DNA of 64,000 nt from Elusimicrobiota bacterium (GCA_016191335.1 JACPOW010000043.1:3704-67703); one strand, 5' to 3'; positions 26,570 to 45,780 are shown, counted from the first letter of the stretch. Translations and numbers: made by a program. The notes: generated by a model from the letters alone, not told the origin.

Positions 26570-28981
26570 CTACGGCGCGGCTTCCTCGCCGGCCTTGATG
26601 GACTCGAGTTTGAGGATCACGCGCTCGAAGGTGTCCTTGAAGCCGCCGGAGAACGGCTCGTCGATGACGCGCAGGGTGCCGAGGCGGTCGACGCGGTCCG
26701 CCGGGATCAGGCCCCGGCCCGGGGCCTCCGCGCGCAGGCGCTCGAGCTGGTCCGACGGGAGGACCTCCCCGGCGGCGAGCTTCGCGGCGAACTTCTTCTC
26801 CACGAGCCGCGCGGCCTCGGCCGCGTCCTTGCCCACGAGAAGGAACTCCTTGCCGCCCGCGCGCACGGGCTCCTCCACCGAGTAGCCGAGCTTGCGCAGG
26901 CGGTTGACCTCGACGCGCATGATCACGCCGAGGCGCTTGAGGTACCGGTCGCCCGCGTCGTGGCCGAGCACGTCGTTGACGGCCTTGAAGTTGCGCGCCG
27001 AGATCATCGCCGCCGCGCCCTTGCCGTCGTAGTCCGCCTCCCACTGCGGCCGCGCCATGTCGATCCACTCCGCGGTCCGCGTCAGCGTCAGCGGGTCCTT
27101 GAACACGGCCTCCAGGAACACCGCGTACTCCTTCTGCGTGAGCTTCTCCTTGAGCGCGCGGATCTCCGACACGCGGTCGGGCCGCGGCGCGGCCGGCGCG
27201 GCGTCCCGGGGCGCGACGCCCTGCGCCAGCGCGGAGAGCTCGCGCAGGCGCGTGAAGGTCAAGGTCCCGGGGACCTCGACGACCGCCTCCCCGCGCAGGC
27301 CCTCGGCCTTCGCTTTATTGAGAACCCCGTCGGCGGCCTTGAGCGCGCTCTCGAAGCCCCGCCCCTTCTCGGCCGCGATGCCGTAGGTGAAGTCTCCGAC
27401 CGGGCCGGTGCGGTTCATGCGGGCCATCGCCGCGTCGATCGCCTGCCTCTCCGGCGCGCCCGTCTCGCTGAGGACCTTCTCCGGCGGGAACGCCTCGCGC
27501 ATGCGGCGCGCGAACTCGATGATGTCGTTCATCGAGCCGAAGGCGACGATCTCCTCTCCTCCGAGGCGCGCCGCGCGCACGCCGGTCGCCTTGGCGAGGG
27601 CGTCGATCCTCGGCCCCGCGGAGGCGAGCATGCGATCCCCCATCTCCTTGCCCGCCACGGGCCCGTGCACGTCGGCCAGGCCCGCGTTGACCGCGCCGAA
27701 GTTGTTCATGTCGAGCATGGCCACCGTCGGCTCCGGCACGCCCGCCAGCAGCTCCTCCGCCTTCTCCATGATGAAGGCGCGGTTGGGCAGGCCCATCAGG
27801 CCGTCGGTGTAGAATATCTCCTCGGCCTTCTTGAACAGCGCCTCCTCGCCGCGGGATATCAGCGAGATCTCCATCTGCCGCAGCGGCGAGCGCTTGTCGG
27901 AGACGTTGCGGGAGGGCCCGTTCGTGGGGCTCTGGTCGAAGAAGCCGTCGGCGACGCCGCGGATGCGGATCGGGCGGTTGCGGATGTGGTCGAAGACGTC
28001 GACGGGCGTCCCCAGGATGGCCCCGGCATGAACCGAGAGCGCCCGGGCGTTCTTGATGGTCGGCCTCCAGCGCGGGTCGAGCCCGACCCTCGAATAAGTG
28101 CCGCTGTTGAAGTCGAGCCGCGGCCGTCCAGTGGCCGGGTCCACCAGGACCTCGCCGGCGAACAGCACCGGCCGCCCTCCGCCGAGCGCCGCGTGCTTGA
28201 CGCCCATCTCCCTGTCGTTGCCGGGCACGACGCGCCCGACCGTCATGCCGATCGTGCCGTCGGGGTTCTCGAAGATCACGTAGTTGTGCTTGACCCCGGG
28301 CTTCATCCGTTTCCAAGAGGCCGCGTCGGCCTCGAAGACGAGGCCGTGCTCCCGCGCGACCTGCATGATCTCGGGCGTGTAGATCGTGCCGGGCAGCAAT
28401 CCGGGGTCGAGCTTGACGCCCGCGCCGCGCCGCTCGAAGCCCGCCGGCCGGGCGACGGGGCCCGAGACCCCGGCCTCTCGGGCCGCGCTTTGGTCGAAGA
28501 GGGCCCGACCGGCGTCGCCTCCCGCCTCGGGCGAATCGTCCGACTTCGACGGGGCGGTCAGGACATGCCCGCCGATGACGCGGGGCTTGACCGGCGTTAA
28601 GGCGGAGCCCGGCAACGACGGGACCGCCGCCGCCGGCGTCCCCGGACGCGCGGCCTGCGGCCGGGCCTTGAGCGGCAAGGTCGAGGTCGGGCGTATGCCC
28701 GTCGCCGGGACGGCTCCCGGCCGGGCGACGGCGGCGTCGACGGCCGCGGGCTGGACGAGGTTCGGCGCCGGCGCCAGGACGTTCGCCAACGTCGGCGCGC
28801 CGGAGGCCGACAACGACGGCACCGTCAGCTGGACCGGGGCGGGAGCGCCGAGGGAGGACCCGATCGCGCCCGTCTGCGTACCGGGCGCGGCCTGGCCGGA
28901 TACGGGGCCTTCGATCTGTCCGGCGCGGACGGCGCAGGACAGGCCCAAAATCAGCAGGGCTCGGAGGGAGAGGGGCCTCAC
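26570..28981 (-). CDS. exported/anchored protein: signal peptide + Pro/Ala-rich leader + unknown domain + two GGDEF-like domains
   Basis: Start set to GTG 28981 (VRPLSLRALLILGLSCAVRAGQ), supported by TGTTATATT 6 nt upstream. First GGDEF-like domain: DGLMGLPNRAF...ARLGGEEIVAFG. Second, degenerate: ISARNFKAVNDVLGHDAGDRYL...RAGGKEFLLVG. Confidence 0.7.
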   Translation of the reverse strand: MRPLSLRALLILGLSCAVRAGQIEGPVSGQAAPGTQTGAIGSSLGAPAPVQLTVPSLSASGAPTLANVLAPAPNLVQPAAVDAAVARPGAVPATGIRPTSTLPLKARPQAARPGTPAAAVPSLPGSALTPVKPRVIGGHVLTAPSKSDDSPEAGGDAGRALFDQSAAREAGVSGPVARPAGFERRGAGVKLDPGLLPGTIYTPEIMQVAREHGLVFEADAASWKRMKPGVKHNYVIFENPDGTIGMTVGRVVPGNDREMGVKHAALGGGRPVLFAGEVLVDPATGRPRLDFNSGTYSRVGLDPRWRPTIKNARALSVHAGAILGTPVDVFDHIRNRPIRIRGVADGFFDQSPTNGPSRNVSDKRSPLRQMEISLISRGEEALFKKAEEIFYTDGLMGLPNRAFIMEKAEELLAGVPEPTVAMLDMNNFGAVNAGLADVHGPVAGKEMGDRMLASAGPRIDALAKATGVRAARLGGEEIVAFGSMNDIIEFARRMREAFPPEKVLSETGAPERQAIDAAMARMNRTGPVGDFTYGIAAEKGRGFESALKAADGVLNKAKAEGLRGEAVVEVPGTLTFTRLRELSALAQGVAPRDAAPAAPRPDRVSEIRALKEKLTQKEYAVFLEAVFKDPLTLTRTAEWIDMARPQWEADYDGKGAAAMISARNFKAVNDVLGHDAGDRYLKRLGVIMRVEVNRLRKLGYSVEEPVRAGGKEFLLVGKDAAEAARLVEKKFAAKLAAGEVLPSDQLERLRAEAPGRGLIPADRVDRLGTLRVIDEPFSGGFKDTFERVILKLESIKAGEEAAP

Positions 28982-39434: not shown

Positions 39435-40181
39435 ATGAGGCGCCTCCTCCTTCTGCCCCTCGCCCTCGCCCTCGCGCTCGCCGCGTCCGCCCGCGCGGCC
39501 GACACCATCCTCGTCGTCGGGGATTCCCACACGGCCGGGGCCTTCGGCGGGGCGCTCGACGACGCGCTGCGCGCCGCGCCCGGCAACCGCGTCGCGACCT
39601 ACGGGGTCTGCTCGGCGCGCCCTCAATCCTATTTCGACGAGACGGAGCACGGCTGCGGCCGGCGGTTCCAGGACTTCACGAAGAAGGCGCCCGCGAAATG
39701 GCTCGGCGGGCGCGTCTACCGCAAGACCCGTCCCGACGGGAAGGGCGGCACGCGCGAGGTCGAGTTCGTGAAGACGCCCGCGCTGGCGCAGCTCCTCGAC
39801 GACCACGCCCCCACCGTGACGGTCGTGGCGCTCGGCTCGAACGTCCCCACCTCGGGCGCGAGCGTGCGCCGGACGCTCAAGCTCATCCACGACGCCGGCA
39901 GCGCCTGCGTCTGGATCGGGCCCCCGAACATGCGCAATCCCTCTCAGAAGGAGATGGACGCCGTCTACGGGACGCTGGCCGAGAACGGGGTCACGCCAGC
40001 GGCGACCTTCGAGGCGTCGCGCACGGACTCCTGCCGCCTCATCGACAGCCGCGGCTTCCCCGGCCTGCGCTATCCCGCGACGGGAGGCGACGGCACGCAT
40101 TACGGCGGGGCGCTCGCCCCCATCGGCATCCAGTGGGGCAAGGACGCCGCCGCGGCCGTGCTGGCCGCGTTCAAGCCCTAG
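39435..40181 (+). CDS. secreted SGNH/GDSL-type hydrolase
   Basis: 248 aa. Signal peptide LLLLPLALALALAASARA. Block I ILVVGDSHTAG. The stop shares a CTAG with the convergent gene stop. Confidence 0.7.
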   Translation: MRRLLLLPLALALALAASARAADTILVVGDSHTAGAFGGALDDALRAAPGNRVATYGVCSARPQSYFDETEHGCGRRFQDFTKKAPAKWLGGRVYRKTRPDGKGGTREVEFVKTPALAQLLDDHAPTVTVVALGSNVPTSGASVRRTLKLIHDAGSACVWIGPPNMRNPSQKEMDAVYGTLAENGVTPAATFEASRTDSCRLIDSRGFPGLRYPATGGDGTHYGGALAPIGIQWGKDAAAAVLAAFKP

Positions 40182-43018
40182 CGCAGGGCTTCGTTGAGGA
40201 CGCGCGCCGCGTCCCAGTCCACCGCTCGGCCGGGCGCGAGGAACAGCTCCAGGCCGCCGGGGGTCCGTCCCGTGTTCTGGTCGGCGTTCGAGACCAGCCC
40301 GCGCTGGGACGGGTCGGGGTGCGAGGAGTCGCCGAGTATGCGGAGCGTGTCGTTGGCCGCCTCGCGCAGGCGGTCCCAGGCGTTGTATAAGCGGCGCACC
40401 GTCTCGGGGCTAAGCTCCCCGTTCGCGGGCACCGCCGCGGCCTCGGCCGCGAAGACGAGCTTGGCGACCTGGAGCCGGTCGATCAAGGAGCGGATCGGGC
40501 GCACGTTGCCCGCGGTGTAGGCGCTCACGGGGCCGGGGTTCTCGGTCCACCTCGCCCACTCCGCGTTCTTGGCGTCGAACGCGGCGCCGGAGGACGCCAA
40601 CCAGTTGCGGGCCCCGTCGGCGAACAGGCGCGCGCTCTGCGACGGCGTCGGCGGCGCGGGGGGCGTCTCCGGCGGCAGGCCGCGGCGGTCGAAGGCGCCG
40701 AGCAGCGGCTCGAAGGCGTTGACCAGCCGGTTGATCTCGGGCTCCTGATAGCGGCGGGCTTTGGCGCGGGGCACGACCGAGTCGAGGACGGCAAGCATGG
40801 CCTCGAGCTGGCGCTTCGTCTCCGGCTCGAGCTTCGCGCCGGGCCGCTCGAGGGACTCGACGCCGTCGTAATACGCGGTCGAGAGGGCATAGGCGGCCTC
40901 GCGCCGGGGCTTGGGGGCCGAGAGGTACGCGCGCACGAGGGCCATGGCGCGCTCCCGCAGGACGGCGTCCTTCTCCCCCTTCAGATGCTCGGCGGCGAAC
41001 GCCTCGAGCTCCGCGTCCGGCTTCGGGGCGGCGGGCAGGAAGCCCGCGAGGATCTCCTCGGCCGTGTCCACGACGGTGAACAGGGCCTCGGGCGCCTCCT
41101 TCAGCAGGCCGTCGGCGAACAGGCGCTGGTACTGCTGGGAGATGCCGCCGAAGAAATCCCGGCCGACGAGGATGATGCGCTTGAGCGGGGCCTTGCCGCG
41201 GTAGGCGTTCATGGCCACGAGGATCGCGGCCTCCTGGATGCTGCCGGCGCTGCCGGGGAAGATCAGGAAATTGTCGGAGACCTTCGCGAACGCCTCCACG
41301 CGCCGGGGCTCGGAGTCGGCGATGCCGATGGCCCGCGCGTCGGAGAGGTTCTCGTCGCCCCACCCCGGACGGACGGCGAGGACCAGGTTCTCGCCGCGAC
41401 GGGGCGCGGCGTTGGCGTTCTCGGCGGCGGCGGCGTACGCGGCGCCCATGACCCCGGCGTTGCCGGCCCCGGTGAGGACGTTGTAGCCGTGACGGATCAG
41501 CGCCCCGGACACCTCGCCCGACAGGGCGACCTGCTCCTTGATGGGGTCGACCGACTTCGAGCTGCCGAGGATGGTGACGGTGCGCGCGCGGCTCTCCGGC
41601 CCGGTGTAGCGCTCGTCGAACTCCGGGATCTCGGCGAAGGACGCGGGGCCGCGGAGCGCCGCGAAATCGAGCGTCACGATCACGGGGAAATGGTCGGAGG
41701 GGTTGCGCGAGCGCTCCGCGTAGGTCGCGGGGATGGCGCGCACGCTGCCGTCCTCGTTCTTGTAGCGGTACGCCTCCGCCTTGCGGACCGCGCCGCGCAG
41801 GGCCTTGGAGACGAGGACCGCGTCCATCTGTCCGAAGTGCGCGGGCGCGCCCTGGGGGTGGAAGGTGTGCGTGATGCGGTCCTTCTCCGACGGCGGGTTC
41901 GGCGACGCGTCGAAGCTGTCGACGAGGCCCGCGGCCTCGAACAGCGGGCGGAACTCCGCGTCCTTGCCCACCTCGCCGTTGAAGTCGCCCGCGAGCATGA
42001 TCGGGGTGTCGGCGCCGAACTCGGCGCGGTAGCGCGCGATGATCTCGGCCGAGCGCTGAACCTGCGCGCCGCGCAGGATGCTGGAGCCGGGGTCGCCGCC
42101 GTCGCGGTCGCGCTTGGACTTGTAGTGCGTGCCGAACAGGACGAACAGCGGCTGGGCCTTGCCCGGGACGCGCACGACGAGCGAGGTCAGGTCCCGGGAG
42201 AACAAGGTCCGCGGCCCGCCGCCGAGCACGGGGTCGACCCAGGTCTCGTCCTTGTGGGAGCGGTGCTCGACGAGGAACGGCAGGTCCTTCTTCACAAGGA
42301 AGGCCACGTCGATGCCGCGTTCGTCGTTGCCCTCGATGAGGTGGACCGAGTATTTCCCGTCGAGGAAGCGCTCGTTGAAGTCGCGCAGGGCGGCGATGTT
42401 CTCGACCTCCTCGAGGGTCACGATGTCGAGGTCGTTCTCGAGGATGACCTGGCCCTGCTCGCGCAGGGACCGGTCCTCCTTGGGACGGGCGTCGGAGATC
42501 TTCTTGAGCTTGCCCGGGTTCTCCGGGTCCGGCACGTGCTTGCCGACGTTCTCGAAGAGGTTGAGGACGTTGTAGGAGCCCATCTTGAGTTCCTTGATGG
42601 ACTCGAGCGAGCGGACGGGGGACGCGGCCGAGGCGGCGGGACCCACGGGCTCGCCGACGGCGGCGGCGCCGTCGAAGAGCCCGGTCAGCGCGGCCGGGAT
42701 CGCGCGCAGGCCCTCGCCGAAGGTCTTCACCGCGGAGCGCAGAGGCTCCATCGCCCTCGCGCCCCGGACGGGGGCGGGCGCCGGCCGGACGGCGACGGGG
42801 ACGGCGGGCGCGGCGAGGACGGGGACCAAAGACGGCGCGAGCGAAGGCGCCAGCCCCGGCGCGAGAGCGGGGGCCGAGAGGCCGGCGGAGAGCGCCGGCG
42901 CCGAGAAGGACACGACTCCGGGGGCGCCCGTGAGCGTGGGAACCGAGGTCTTGAGCGAGACGACCTGGGCGTTCAGCGGGGACGCGAGGACCAGGGCCGC
43001 CAGCATGGCTCGAAGCAT
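40178..43018 (-). CDS. exported fusion protein: endonuclease/exonuclease/phosphatase (EEP) domain + LOG/TIGR00730-like domain + unknown helical C-terminal domain
   Basis: 946 aa. Signal MLRAMLAALVLASPLNAQ. APSL-repeat leader. EEP blocks (MGSYNVLNLF, DIVTLEEV, MLAGDFN, NPSDHFPV). LOG-like blocks (TILGSSKS, VLTGAGNAGVMGA, LIFPGSAGSIQE). Confidence 0.8.
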   Translation of the reverse strand: MLRAMLAALVLASPLNAQVVSLKTSVPTLTGAPGVVSFSAPALSAGLSAPALAPGLAPSLAPSLVPVLAAPAVPVAVRPAPAPVRGARAMEPLRSAVKTFGEGLRAIPAALTGLFDGAAAVGEPVGPAASAASPVRSLESIKELKMGSYNVLNLFENVGKHVPDPENPGKLKKISDARPKEDRSLREQGQVILENDLDIVTLEEVENIAALRDFNERFLDGKYSVHLIEGNDERGIDVAFLVKKDLPFLVEHRSHKDETWVDPVLGGGPRTLFSRDLTSLVVRVPGKAQPLFVLFGTHYKSKRDRDGGDPGSSILRGAQVQRSAEIIARYRAEFGADTPIMLAGDFNGEVGKDAEFRPLFEAAGLVDSFDASPNPPSEKDRITHTFHPQGAPAHFGQMDAVLVSKALRGAVRKAEAYRYKNEDGSVRAIPATYAERSRNPSDHFPVIVTLDFAALRGPASFAEIPEFDERYTGPESRARTVTILGSSKSVDPIKEQVALSGEVSGALIRHGYNVLTGAGNAGVMGAAYAAAAENANAAPRRGENLVLAVRPGWGDENLSDARAIGIADSEPRRVEAFAKVSDNFLIFPGSAGSIQEAAILVAMNAYRGKAPLKRIILVGRDFFGGISQQYQRLFADGLLKEAPEALFTVVDTAEEILAGFLPAAPKPDAELEAFAAEHLKGEKDAVLRERAMALVRAYLSAPKPRREAAYALSTAYYDGVESLERPGAKLEPETKRQLEAMLAVLDSVVPRAKARRYQEPEINRLVNAFEPLLGAFDRRGLPPETPPAPPTPSQSARLFADGARNWLASSGAAFDAKNAEWARWTENPGPVSAYTAGNVRPIRSLIDRLQVAKLVFAAEAAAVPANGELSPETVRRLYNAWDRLREAANDTLRILGDSSHPDPSQRGLVSNADQNTGRTPGGLELFLAPGRAVDWDAARVLNEALR

Positions 43019-43024
43019 GACCCT

Positions 43025-43053
43025 ATTATAAGGAGGCCGCCCGATCCCTCCAA
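43025..43053 (-). promoter_or_regulatory. promoter TTGGAG-17-TATAAT, 6 nt upstream of EEP-LOG ATG 43018
   Basis: Read from the sequence. Confidence 0.5.
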
Positions 43054-43114
43054 GGGGCTTAAGACCTTGTCATTTTAGGTCTTTCAGCCCTAGGTTCTCG
43101 ACGGAGGTTAAGCT

Positions 43115-43128: not shown

Positions 43129-45780
43129 ATGATTTATCGAATCCTCCTTTTAATAGCCGTTCCGGTTACCAGCGTCGCGGGCGTCGTGCGCATGCCCGCC
43201 CTCCAAAGCGGCCCCTCGCTGACGGCGCCCGCGGCGGCCCCCTCGCTGAGCGTTCCCTCGCTCGCCGCGCCTGTCCTGACCGTCCCCTCGCTGACCGCCT
43301 CGCCCCTGGCCGCCGCTCCGTCTATCGCGCCCGCGCCCGTCTCGGCTATCGCGACCGTCCGGGCCGCCGCCGCCGCCCTCCCGGATGCCCGGGTCCCCGC
43401 CGCCTCGGCCAAGGCCGCCGTCGGCGCGTCGTTCGACGCCTCCGTCGTCCGCAAGCCCGAGGCCGAGGCCGTCGCCGGCTCCTTCTCCGTCTCTCCCGCG
43501 CTGTCCGCCCCCTCCGCCGGCGAGACGCCCGGCCCGTCGTTCGTCCCCTCAGCGTCCGAGCCCGCCGACCGCCCGCTGTTCTTCCGCCGCTACGGGCTCC
43601 TGCGCCTCGCCGTGCGGCCGTTCGTGCGCCTGTTCTACAGGACCGCGATCTCCGGCCTCGAGAACCTTCCGAACGGCCCGGCCGTGATCGTGCCCAACCA
43701 CATCTCCTACGTCGACGCGATCCTGATCTCCTTCGCCGCGGACCGGCCGATGCGCTTCATGATGAAGCGCCAGATCTTCGAGAAGATGCCTCGTTTGATG
43801 GGCGCGCTCGGGGCGATCCCGGTCTCCTCCCAGGACTCGCCGAAGGACATCGAGGCCTCCCTCGAGGCCGCGCGCCAGGCGATCCGCGCGGGGCAGAGCG
43901 TCGTGATCTTCCCCGAGGGCCAGCTGACGCTGACGGGCAACATGACCGGCTTCCGGCGCGGCTTCGAGCGCATCGTGGCCGGCGCGCCCGCGCCCGTGAT
44001 CCCGGCCTACCTCGACGGCCTGTGGGGCTCCGCGTTCTCGATGCAGAAGGGCCCGTCGCTGTGGAGCCGCCTCAAGGAGCTGCCGCGCCCGGTGTCGGTG
44101 CGCTTCGGCCCGGCGCTCGCCGAGCCGACCGCGCAGGCCGCGCGCCTGGCCGTCACCGAGCTCGGCGCGGCCTCGATGGAGGCGCGCGTGCGCTCCCGCC
44201 GCAAGCCGCTGGCGCGCGAGTTCTTCGCGAGCGCGATGAACTCCTTCGGCAAGCCCGCGATCGCCGACTCGATGGGGGCGGACCTCACCTACGGCAAGGC
44301 GCTCACCGGAGCGCTCCTGCTCGGCCGCGCGCTCGACGCGAGGCTCGACGGCGGGGCCAACGCCGCCGTGCTGCTGCCCCCGTCGGCCGGCGGAGCGCTC
44401 GCCAACCTGGCGCTGGCCTCCGTCGGCCGCGTGCCGGTGAACCTGAACTACACCGCGAGCCGCGAGGCGGTGGACCACGCCCTCAAGAGCGCGGACATCG
44501 GAAGCGTCGTGACCTCGAAGAAGTTCGTCGAGGCCCTGAAGACCGAGAAGGGCTTCGAGCTGCCGGCCGGGAAGAACATCATCTACTTAGAGGACGTCGC
44601 CCCGACCATCCCTCAGTGGAAGAAGACCGCGACCTTCCTCCTGCTCAAGGTCCTGCCCGCGTCCTGGTCGGAGCGTGTGTTCCTCTCCTTGGCGTCCAAG
44701 GACCTCGACGACACCGCGACCATCCTGTTCACCAGCGGCTCGAGCGCTTTGCCCAAGGGCGTCGTGCTGACCCACCTGAACGTCCTGGCCAACGTCGAGA
44801 TGGTGCGCGAGCTCCTGCCCTGGGCGAAGAGCGACGCGATGCTGGGGGTGCTGCCCTTCTTCCACTCCTTCGGCTTCACCGTGACTTTGTGGATGCCTCT
44901 CGTGTCCGGCATGTCGGCGGCCTACCACGTCCACCCGATGCAGGCCGAGCAGATCGGCAAGCTCGCGGCGAGGTTCAAGTCCACCTTGCTGCTGGCCACG
45001 CCCGCCTTCCTGCAGCGCTACTCTCAGAAGATCCCGGCCGAGGCCTTCAAGCACCTGCGCCTCGTGATCGCCGGCGCCGAGAAGCTGCGCGACTCGGTGG
45101 CCGACGAGTTCGCGGCGAAGTTCGGCGTGCGCCCTTACGAGGGCTACGGCGCGACCGAGCTGTCCCCGGTCGCCTCCGCCGGCACCCCGGACGCGGGCAA
45201 ACAGAAAGGCTCCAAGCCCGGGTCCGTCGGCCGCGCCCTGCCGGGCACGGCGGTCAAGGCCGTGGACCTCAAGACCGGCAAGCCCGTCCCCGACGGCGAG
45301 GTCGGCATGCTCATGGTCAAGGGGCCGCACGTCATGAAGGGCTACCTCGGCCAGCCCGAGAAGACGGCCGAGGTGCTCCAGGACGGCTGGTATGTCACCG
45401 GCGACCTCGGGACCATCGACCGCGACGGGTTCATCTCCATCACCGGCCGCCTGTCGCGCTTCTCGAAGCTCGCGGGCGAGATGGTCTCCCACACCGCCGT
45501 CGAGGAGAAGCTGCAGCAGGCCGCGGGCCTGGCCGACATGACCTTCGTGGTCACCGGCGTCAAGGACGAGAAGCGCGGCGAGAGGCTCGTCGTCCTGTAC
45601 GCGGGCTGGGACGGCGACATCGACGCCCTGCTCGGGAAGATGCGCGCCCTGGGCGTGCCGAACCTGTGGCTGCCGGCGAAGTCGTCCTTCCACAAGGTCG
45701 ACTCGATCCCGCTGCTCGGCACCGGCAAGCTCGACCTCAAGGCGGTCAACGAGCTCGCCGCGAAGCTCGCGGGCGCCTAG
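43129..45780 (+). CDS. aas: bifunctional lysophospholipid acyltransferase / acyl-[ACP] synthetase (Aas-like) with N-terminal signal + Pro/Ala/Ser-rich leader
   Basis: 883 aa. PlsC motifs VPNHISYVDA and VIFPEGQLT. AMP-binding FTSGSSALPKGVVLTH. About 150-aa leader containing VLTVPSLTAS. Confidence 0.8.
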   Translation: MIYRILLLIAVPVTSVAGVVRMPALQSGPSLTAPAAAPSLSVPSLAAPVLTVPSLTASPLAAAPSIAPAPVSAIATVRAAAAALPDARVPAASAKAAVGASFDASVVRKPEAEAVAGSFSVSPALSAPSAGETPGPSFVPSASEPADRPLFFRRYGLLRLAVRPFVRLFYRTAISGLENLPNGPAVIVPNHISYVDAILISFAADRPMRFMMKRQIFEKMPRLMGALGAIPVSSQDSPKDIEASLEAARQAIRAGQSVVIFPEGQLTLTGNMTGFRRGFERIVAGAPAPVIPAYLDGLWGSAFSMQKGPSLWSRLKELPRPVSVRFGPALAEPTAQAARLAVTELGAASMEARVRSRRKPLAREFFASAMNSFGKPAIADSMGADLTYGKALTGALLLGRALDARLDGGANAAVLLPPSAGGALANLALASVGRVPVNLNYTASREAVDHALKSADIGSVVTSKKFVEALKTEKGFELPAGKNIIYLEDVAPTIPQWKKTATFLLLKVLPASWSERVFLSLASKDLDDTATILFTSGSSALPKGVVLTHLNVLANVEMVRELLPWAKSDAMLGVLPFFHSFGFTVTLWMPLVSGMSAAYHVHPMQAEQIGKLAARFKSTLLLATPAFLQRYSQKIPAEAFKHLRLVIAGAEKLRDSVADEFAAKFGVRPYEGYGATELSPVASAGTPDAGKQKGSKPGSVGRALPGTAVKAVDLKTGKPVPDGEVGMLMVKGPHVMKGYLGQPEKTAEVLQDGWYVTGDLGTIDRDGFISITGRLSRFSKLAGEMVSHTAVEEKLQQAAGLADMTFVVTGVKDEKRGERLVVLYAGWDGDIDALLGKMRALGVPNLWLPAKSSFHKVDSIPLLGTGKLDLKAVNELAAKLAGA

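Follow-up and report, generated by a model that had tools for sequence, protein, structure and literature searches.

A 64,000-nucleotide stretch of DNA from an uncultured Elusimicrobiota bacterium (GCA_016191335.1, JACPOW010000043.1:3704-67703; the window) encodes on its minus strand, at 40178..43018, a 946-residue protein, P0001, in which four parts are joined: a leader with its linker, a phosphoesterase domain of the endonuclease/exonuclease/phosphatase (EEP) superfamily, a divergent LOG domain, and an all-helical C-terminal domain (CT). From its sequence we propose, at a probability of about 0.4, that P0001 is an accessory enzyme targeted to the envelope, which degrades nucleic acid or nucleotide substrates in two steps to free base and ribose-5-phosphate. 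A leader of Sec type, followed by a flexible tether rich in Pro and Ala, would deliver the protein to the envelope. The EEP domain, whose active site is intact, would act as a Mg2+-dependent phosphodiesterase that cuts phosphodiester bonds in its presumed substrate and leaves 5'-phosphorylated nucleotides. The LOG domain, probably dimeric like other LOGs, might then hydrolyse the N-glycosidic bond of nucleoside 5'-monophosphates (NMPs) to yield base and (deoxy)ribose 5-phosphate; the activity is presumed, while Arg573, Glu596 and the phosphate loop are conserved. The helical C-terminal domain may serve as an optional accessory or binding module, and given that the genome carries an NCS2 permease (Xan_ur_permease) and adenine phosphoribosyltransferase (apt, APRT), uptake and salvage of the released bases would be feasible.

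This reading is supported by the closest structural neighbours of the EEP domain, most of which act on nucleic-acid or nucleotide phosphoesters, and by two independent fusions of one EEP core with nucleotide-handling modules, namely LOG and a TLC-like transporter of the major facilitator superfamily (MFS). Nucleotide substrates are favoured because both of these partners (LOG, which binds NMPs, and the MFS domain resembling TLC proteins and nucleoside triphosphate (NTP) exchangers) handle nucleotides. In addition, the set of leader-bearing proteins in this genome includes other degradative exo-enzymes. The original prediction, made from the DNA alone, had suggested a nucleotide-scavenging or signal-destroying effector: the fusion partners lend indirect support to scavenging, whereas the destruction of a signal finds none, with neither a PADLOC match nor signalling genes nearby.

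The catalytic and helical domains of P0001

The gene is present at 40178..43018 (-) as the single open reading frame (ORF) of 946 codons, plus stop, that had been described, with each of the quoted motifs at its given position: MGSYNVLNLF at residues 146-155, LEEVE at 202-206, AGDFN at 343-347, SDHFP at 441-445, TGAGNAGVMGA at 516-526, and PGSAGSIQE at 588-596. The window has a G+C content of about 70% and contains long shadow frames; one of these, a 697-aa open frame rich in Arg, Gly, Asp and Glu on the opposite strand (40985..43078, plus strand), is a product of high G+C and no gene. It is homology, and not length, that identifies the minus-strand frame as the real gene, and full-length homologues (P0002-P0004) are 81-86% identical to it. 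Because these homologues share the architecture and sit on other contigs, the fusion is no artefact of assembly or frameshift. An AlphaFold2 (AF2) model calculated from a 27-sequence alignment (mean predicted local distance difference test (pLDDT) score of 71) leaves residues 1-93 and 116-131 disordered, places a confident EEP sandwich at 141-457, and predicts a helical C-terminus well. Of the three domains in the original prediction, Pfam and Foldseek bear out the EEP phosphoesterase, Pfam and phmmer the LOG/TIGR00730-like domain, whose motif is a variant, and the AF2 model the helical domain for which it had no name.

The EEP domain comprises residues 141-457 (41648..42598, minus strand), and its predicted structure, a four-layer alpha/beta sandwich, is certainly of the EEP fold. 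PF03372 matches residues 148-443 over profile positions 2-225 of 225, a narrow pass at 27.4 bits against a gathering threshold (GA) of 24.5, and PF19580 scores 23 bits on the same part. A Foldseek search of the Protein Data Bank (PDB) with the modelled domain gave 165 matches at E<=1e-3, headed by TDP2 (E 9e-11, target TM-score (TMt) 0.72) and including nocturnin, Bacteroides EEP proteins, CNOT6L, APE1, LINE-1 endonuclease, DNase1L3, human neutral sphingomyelinase (nSMase), and Staphylococcus aureus beta-toxin; these neighbours are generic, and naming a subfamily from structure was therefore dropped. Across the 27 homologues, N150, E206, H298, D345, N347, D399, D442, and H443 are invariant, and so is a basic loop (H298-K300-S301-K302-R303-R305). 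The metal-binding and catalytic roles, which we take to belong to the Asn, Glu, Asp-x-Asn, Asp and Asp-His residues, are assigned from motif position and general family knowledge rather than from superposition.

P0001 is a member of the EEP superfamily and not of the ExeM/NucH family, although the model of that family (NF033681) is the best NCBIfam match for the EEP part, at 31.2 bits against a cut-off of 300 and over profile positions 234-545 only. With ExeM/NucH and the EEP nucleases TDP2, nocturnin, CCR4/CNOT6L, and APE1 it shares the fold and the full catalytic Asn/Glu/Asp/Asn/Asp-His set, and with ExeM/NucH also a secretion-type N-terminus. In contrast to the ExeM-like protein P0035, which has LTD, OB-fold and CARDB domains, no LTD or OB domain was found in P0001 by Pfam, and the basic loop, THYKSKRDRD (297-306), sets it apart from ExeM/NucH and from these other EEP nucleases.

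The middle domain, residues 470-660 (41039..41611, minus strand), is called LOG/SLOG-like by profile searches, as the original prediction had it, and is on its sequence best called a distinct, small and divergent LOG subfamily within the LOG/SLOG superfamily. PF03641 narrowly passes at residues 572-658 (29.6 bits against a GA of 27, profile positions 44-129), while PF18306 (SLOG cluster 4) stays below its GA of 26.3 bits in both P0001 (24.7) and its relative P0007 (25.9). In a phmmer comparison with PDB sequences, residues 480-658 align end to end with solved LOGs, best with 9us2 (E 2.5e-8), and the AF2 model gives residues 480-657 the strand/helix alternation of a Rossmann domain, with a disordered insert at 536-568. 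In CgLOG, Arg99 and Glu122 have been proposed as catalytic residues, and Gly116-Thr119 together with Ser19 hold the phosphate (PMC4979012). The equivalents of the catalytic pair, R573 and E596, align to solved LOGs and are conserved in all 17 LOG-bearing homologues; R573 lies in SEPRRV in P0001 and in SEAERI in most relatives, and E596 closes the loop P588-G-S-A-G-S-I-Q-E596. The GSS serines are found at 486-487, and the phosphate-binding Thr (CgLOG Thr119) is replaced by Ser, which keeps the hydroxyl side chain. Catalytic residues, GSS serines and variant motif are all invariant across the 17 homologues, which points to purifying selection; the picture is that of a functional N-glycosidase whose phosphate loop has changed rather than of a decayed remnant.

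A search with the LOG domain alone retrieved just 11 relatives, among them standalone proteins of 205-225 aa, which share the motifs ESRxxTVxxLGSSKS, TG(A/C)GxxG(I/V)MG, WGDE(N/D)L, SExxR(I/V)xxF, and FPG(S/G)xx(S/T)xxE. One relative, a 430-aa Elusimicrobiota protein from a different metagenome-assembled genome, consists of leader, linker and LOG without EEP. Compared to type II LOG phosphoribohydrolases (TIGR00730; 9us2, CgLOG), P0001 has the same Rossmann fold over 480-658, catalytic Arg and Glu, GSS phosphate serine and P-G-x-x-G-(S/T)-x-x-E loop, but it differs in its PGSAGSxxE sequence, its first glycine-rich motif (TGAGNAGVMG), the additional WGDENL motif, and the insert. Whereas typical LOGs are cytosolic proteins of ~200-300 aa, this one is embedded in a multidomain protein of 946 aa behind a leader. 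The chemistry proposed for it is that of PpnN, a LOG-family N-glycosidase acting on ordinary NMPs, although PpnN is a cytosolic, alarmone-regulated tetramer with other flanking domains and the match of P0001 to NF038390 is weak (16.5 bits against a cut-off of 450). A LOG predicted to be exported has a precedent in BpLOG (BP1253) of Bordetella pertussis, for which a location in the periplasm is likewise predicted (PMC6864091). BpLOG belongs to the same family but is a single domain with the canonical PGGxGTxxE and lacks EEP and CT, and no close relation in sequence to P0001 was found.

The C-terminal region of about 300 aa that the original prediction could not name is indeed helical: modelled alone, the last 289 residues form helices throughout at a pLDDT of 86. 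It matches no Pfam family above threshold, and Foldseek finds no fold relative for it in the PDB (best E 1.6) or in BFVD (best E 0.09). A profile comparison with PDB sequences yielded only a weak match to the coiled coil of SipB (E 0.047), and DUF7185, at residues 835-880, stays below threshold at 21 bits against 27; this DUF was absent from the control genomes and receives no mention in the literature searched. Two subdomains are connected by a Pro-rich linker. CT1 (residues 665-780; 40679..41026, minus strand) is modelled as helices at pLDDT 75-95 and is missing from P0005-P0007, which keep CT2. The invariant positions are confined to CT2 (residues 792-946; 40181..40645, minus strand), which carries the motif DSxxPDxSxRGLxxNxDQNTGRxPGG and, in P0001, five Trp residues, four of them invariant. 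An exhaustive HMMER search found 13 proteins among 1.84 billion representatives, one of them spurious; P0044, a eukaryotic mucin, was discarded as a low-complexity artefact. The relatives are EEP fusions, standalone leader-bearing proteins of 296-391 aa, and pieces of giant multi-module proteins, one of 6037 aa and several from Omnitrophota (P0040, P0041 and P0045/P0046 being Omnitrophota or unnamed metagenome proteins). In these giants, short linkers that recur between the modules (GARMAD, RGDDEAML, RDMAMTLP) might be processing sites, and P0041 also carries zincin-like HExxH motifs. An accessory binding or targeting role for the domain is our guess.

Variable architecture in a conserved neighbourhood

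The original prediction had allowed that the architecture might prove to be a common annotated family. It did not: only 35 relatives were retrieved among 5.8 billion clusters, all of them Elusimicrobiota or unnamed metagenome proteins and annotated at most as 'LOG family protein'. A sample of 301 Elusimicrobiota species genomes contains the EEP subfamily in nine, which come from two families of one order and include five of the 12 genomes of the window's genus. The C-terminal domain is limited in the same sample to the window's genome and a 32-residue remnant in one congener, and the full architecture of P0001 is seen solely here and in three metagenome proteins. A search of the window's genome for paralogues of EEP or CT returned none. 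Neither an EEP-LOG fusion nor nucleases of Elusimicrobia are described in the literature searched, the coverage of which excludes the paper defining the SLOG superfamily.

The gene occupies a conserved slot, with a divergent Aas-like gene on one side and an SGNH/DUF459-like gene, rarA, zapA, and pheTS on the other. What fills this slot varies. One relative has EEP, LOG and CT (P0003, 946 aa), another has EEP and CT without LOG (P0013, 754 aa), and congener G295 has leader and EEP only: 464 aa from an MLRALL start that matches that of P0001, with an EEP domain 91% identical. Because one or both are missing from relatives at this locus, LOG and CT are, judged by sequence, dispensable add-ons to an autonomous EEP core, and the existence of the EEP-only orthologue indicates that this core works without LOG. 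Elsewhere, EEP is found with LOG, with LOG and CT2, with unrelated tails, and with a 12-helix MFS domain. In a maximum-likelihood tree of the EEP domain, a clade with MFS or 220-aa tails stands apart from a clade of 25 members, in which LOG and CT architectures are interspersed and at least 15 changes are required. In-frame deletion seems to account for much of the variety found among close relatives. Some of the short forms, which lie on short contigs, may be truncated; those on contigs 46-396 kb long are complete. Heavy deletion has left P0042 (118 aa) with the leader, the FDG motif and a few pieces of CT2, and in a close relative, at G176:C51:18597-18692 (L054), 32 aa of CT2 remain.

The divergent neighbour (43129..45780, plus strand) encodes an Aas-like acyl-ACP--phospholipid O-acyltransferase/ligase with the same kind of leader as P0001. 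It matches NF006386 at 870 bits and covers only positions 414-1145, the C-terminal two thirds, of this LplT-Aas fusion model (NF006386, PRK08633); a hydrophobic N-terminus and a Pro/Ala-rich stretch stand in place of the MFS (LplT) part. Its synteny is conserved in L003 and L005. The convergent neighbour (39435..40181, plus strand), a leader-bearing SGNH/DUF459-like hydrolase, keeps its place in some relatives and is missing from G295. The other neighbours are rarA, zapA, pheST, and xseAB, and this housekeeping neighbourhood shows no marked composition break.

In the sister clade, the MFS part of the EEP-MFS fusions scores 29-36 bits with PF03219 (TLC ATP/ADP transporters; GA 21), and its sole NCBIfam match is a superfamily model of exchangers of NTPs and nucleoside diphosphates (NDPs), far below cut-off. 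We considered whether this MFS domain could be the missing LplT partner of the Aas-like gene and ruled it out, given that its only NCBIfam similarity is to NTP/NDP exchangers and that the fused genes do not adjoin Aas. A 588-aa protein of the window's genome (G000:C133, L039, 727..2493, minus strand) combines leader, Pro/Ala/Ser linker and the TLC-like MFS domain seen in the EEP fusions of relatives; it is separate from P0001, so that both halves of the EEP-MFS fusions exist here as separate leader-bearing genes. On the contig of P0029 (L050, 1574-16326), from another Elusimicrobia metagenome-assembled genome, an EEP-MFS gene lies near genes for NUDIX, PLD, dual-specificity phosphatase and phosphate-selective porin O/P proteins, a loose cluster with a link to phosphate or nucleotide metabolism that L052 does not share.

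Location and function of P0001

The leader of P0001 (residues 1-17; 42968..43018, minus strand) reads as MLR / AMLAALVLA / SPLNA|Q, a canonical-looking n-h-c layout that ends in LNA|Q, where cleavage is predicted. It is followed by a linker rich in Pro, Ala, Ser and Leu (residues 18-117; 42668..42967, minus strand; pLDDT <50), which closes with LFDG at 114-117. This N-terminal module is found genome-wide: about 50 ORFs start with a Sec-like leader ending in AxA|Q and continue for some 100 aa with the same composition and (A/V)PSL repeats, and at least 20 of 50 carriers have an (L/A/M/I)FDG motif 95-130 aa past the predicted cleavage site, against a background of 9%. Inside the window, it is present in the P0001 gene (42668-43018), the Aas-like gene (43129-43480), and a gene for a GGDEF protein (26570-28981). 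Its carriers fall into three groups. Endonuclease I and peptidases M28, S41 (with PDZ) and S8 are typical exo-enzymes; with them we group a PD-(D/E)XK nuclease and a protein with four PLD units, to neither of which we assign a usual location. A MoxR ATPase, a Clp-like AAA+ protein, the GGDEF protein and the Aas-like neighbour depend on ATP or GTP. Finally, the module stands before membrane proteins with a first helix that usually begins on the cytoplasmic side (N-in), namely the TLC-like MFS of contig C133, five further MFS transporters and a tandem ABC exporter, and no additional helix lies between module and transporter. The topology of the module is thus contradictory, with exo-enzymes on one side and cytoplasmic-type enzymes and N-in transporters on the other. 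The original prediction placed the fusion behind an export leader; this is plausible from the n-h-c layout of the leader, and is put in question by the other proteins that the same module precedes.

Several points weigh against a two-step, envelope-targeted enzyme. The EEP domain is just 12-18% identical to solved or characterised EEPs, and its fold does not by itself tell nucleic-acid, nucleotide, lipid and glycan phosphoesters apart as substrates; sphingomyelinases appear among its Foldseek neighbours, and a profile search against PDB sequences touches the mannosyl-6-phosphatase 4c1r (E 0.003). In the LOG domain, TIGR00730 scores 33.8 bits over residues 480-658 (profile positions 2-173 of 178), far from its cut-off of 96.35, and the canonical PGGxGTxxE is altered to PGSAGSIQE (588-596), in which the second Gly and the Thr have become Ser and the closing Glu is retained. 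The organism has purM and makes purines de novo; scavenging is no necessity, and purine auxotrophy is ruled out as its motive. As for location, export is made doubtful by the MoxR, Clp-like AAA, GGDEF and Aas proteins and the N-in MFS and ABC transporters that carry the module, positive-inside counts in the EEP-MFS fusions put the EEP side in the cytoplasm, and standalone members of the LOG subfamily of P0001 have no leader.

The sphingomyelinases (human nSMase and S. aureus beta-toxin) and the phosphatase among the matches would fit an enzyme acting on envelope lipids or glycans, similar to a sphingomyelinase, phospholipase C or sugar phosphatase, that works with the Aas-like re-acylase and the SGNH hydrolase and treats LOG and CT as accessories. 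We consider this unlikely, while noting that relatives preserve the gene order Aas-like, EEP, DUF459/SGNH and that the Aas match is strong. However, the neighbouring genes are divergent or convergent and not co-transcribed, G295 retains the EEP gene without the SGNH gene, and the EEP-MFS fusions have other neighbours, Aas not among them, their MFS part resembling NTP/NDP exchangers and not LplT. Such an enzyme would also leave the fusion to a nucleotide N-glycosidase domain unexplained.

The topological points, in turn, would be accounted for if the same chemistry took place at the cytoplasmic face, with the N-terminal module as a membrane tether and nucleic acid or nucleotide turnover occurring inside the cell. 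The ATP/GTP-dependent soluble enzymes, the N-in transporters, the positive-inside analysis and the leaderless LOG relatives all agree with this location, which we judge less probable again than a lipid or glycan substrate. The short h-region of 9-10 residues, the positive n-region and the AxA|Q c-region are typical of cleaved Sec signals rather than of reverse anchors, the module is also found on Endonuclease I and on M28, S41 and S8 peptidases, which normally act outside the cytoplasm, and an unregulated intracellular nuclease would be hazardous. Export of P0001, as read from its sequence, appears more likely than a cytoplasmic location.

The near-threshold match to PF18306 raises the question of whether LOG could be a sensor rather than an enzyme. 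SLOG domains of ThsA act as sensors of cyclic ADP-ribose (cADPR) in the Thoeris system (PMC11204291), and on this model a nucleotide-derived signal bound by the LOG/SLOG domain would switch the EEP nuclease on or off. The two proteins agree in outline, ThsA (SIR2-SLOG) also being an effector enzyme fused to a domain of the SLOG superfamily. In contrast to ThsA, P0001 has a leader, no ThsB/TIR partner and no PADLOC match, and it keeps the catalytic Arg and Glu in all members of the subfamily; its conserved neighbourhood holds housekeeping genes only (pheST, zapA, rarA, xseAB) and neither TIR, cyclase nor any other signal-generating gene. Given that EEP-only and EEP+CT orthologues exist, EEP is moreover independent of LOG. 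Ligand gating is thus improbable in our view, more so than a cytoplasmic location.

A second protein links the leader to a LOG domain. PF03641 has three matches in the genome: P0001, an ordinary LOG on contig C129, which we take to be cytosolic since its inferred protein has no leader at the start, and a leader-LOG fusion at G000:C106:21736-23688 (L025/L037, minus strand). The latter is a stop-to-stop frame of 651 aa, or 590 aa from the listed TTG, and combines leader, linker and FDG motif with a region of about 250 aa and a canonical type-II LOG (PF03641, 99 bits). The ~250-aa region contains a PD-(D/E)XK-like TPD...EMK motif and has a sub-threshold match to CdiA_C (E 0.045); that it could be a nuclease is only a lead. 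If it is one, it would provide a second nuclease-LOG pairing behind the same leader, and with it independent support for a nuclease-to-LOG pipeline.

The CdiA_C-like match also bears on the idea of a delivered effector or toxin, exported to degrade the nucleic acids and nucleotide pool of a target cell, with its variable C-terminal modules the outcome of an arms race. The number of C-terminal rearrangements within a shallow EEP clade, the patchy occurrence even within the genus, the presence of CT in giant multi-module Omnitrophota proteins, and leader-bearing enzymes whose substrates exist only inside a cell are all consistent with such a protein. Yet within +/-8 kb in three genomes there is no secretion-system gene and no small co-oriented gene downstream, no adjoining gene resembles an immunity gene, the neighbourhood is conserved, of housekeeping type and free of a marked composition break, and much of the variety (P0042, the G176 remnant, the EEP-only form) looks like decay by in-frame deletion and not diversification. 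Toxin delivery is in our estimate as improbable as ligand gating. A known defence effector is not at hand: PADLOC gives no match for P0001 or its neighbours. The most speculative view, and the one to which we assign the lowest probability, is that P0001 belongs to a lineage-specific sorted proteome in which the N-terminal module marks cargo for another cell or an unusual compartment, EEP-LOG-CT being an effector that destroys nucleic acids and the nucleotide pool and CT a new targeting or translocation module.

Should the preferred reading, degradation of nucleic acids or nucleotides at the envelope by EEP and LOG in turn, be correct, P0001 would represent a natural fusion of an EEP phosphodiesterase with a LOG N-glycosidase and would extend LOG enzymes from cytosolic cytokinin and nucleotide housekeeping to nucleic-acid degradation in the envelope. 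It would also provide a first functional handle on the divergent LOG subfamily with the motif PG(S/G)xx(S/T)xxE. P0001 further defines a new family of helical domains without fold relatives, which is common to Elusimicrobiota and the giant proteins of Omnitrophota, and its orthologous locus shows domain loss by in-frame deletion in near relatives. The topology of the N-terminal module, finally, bears on how this lineage sorts some 50 large proteins.

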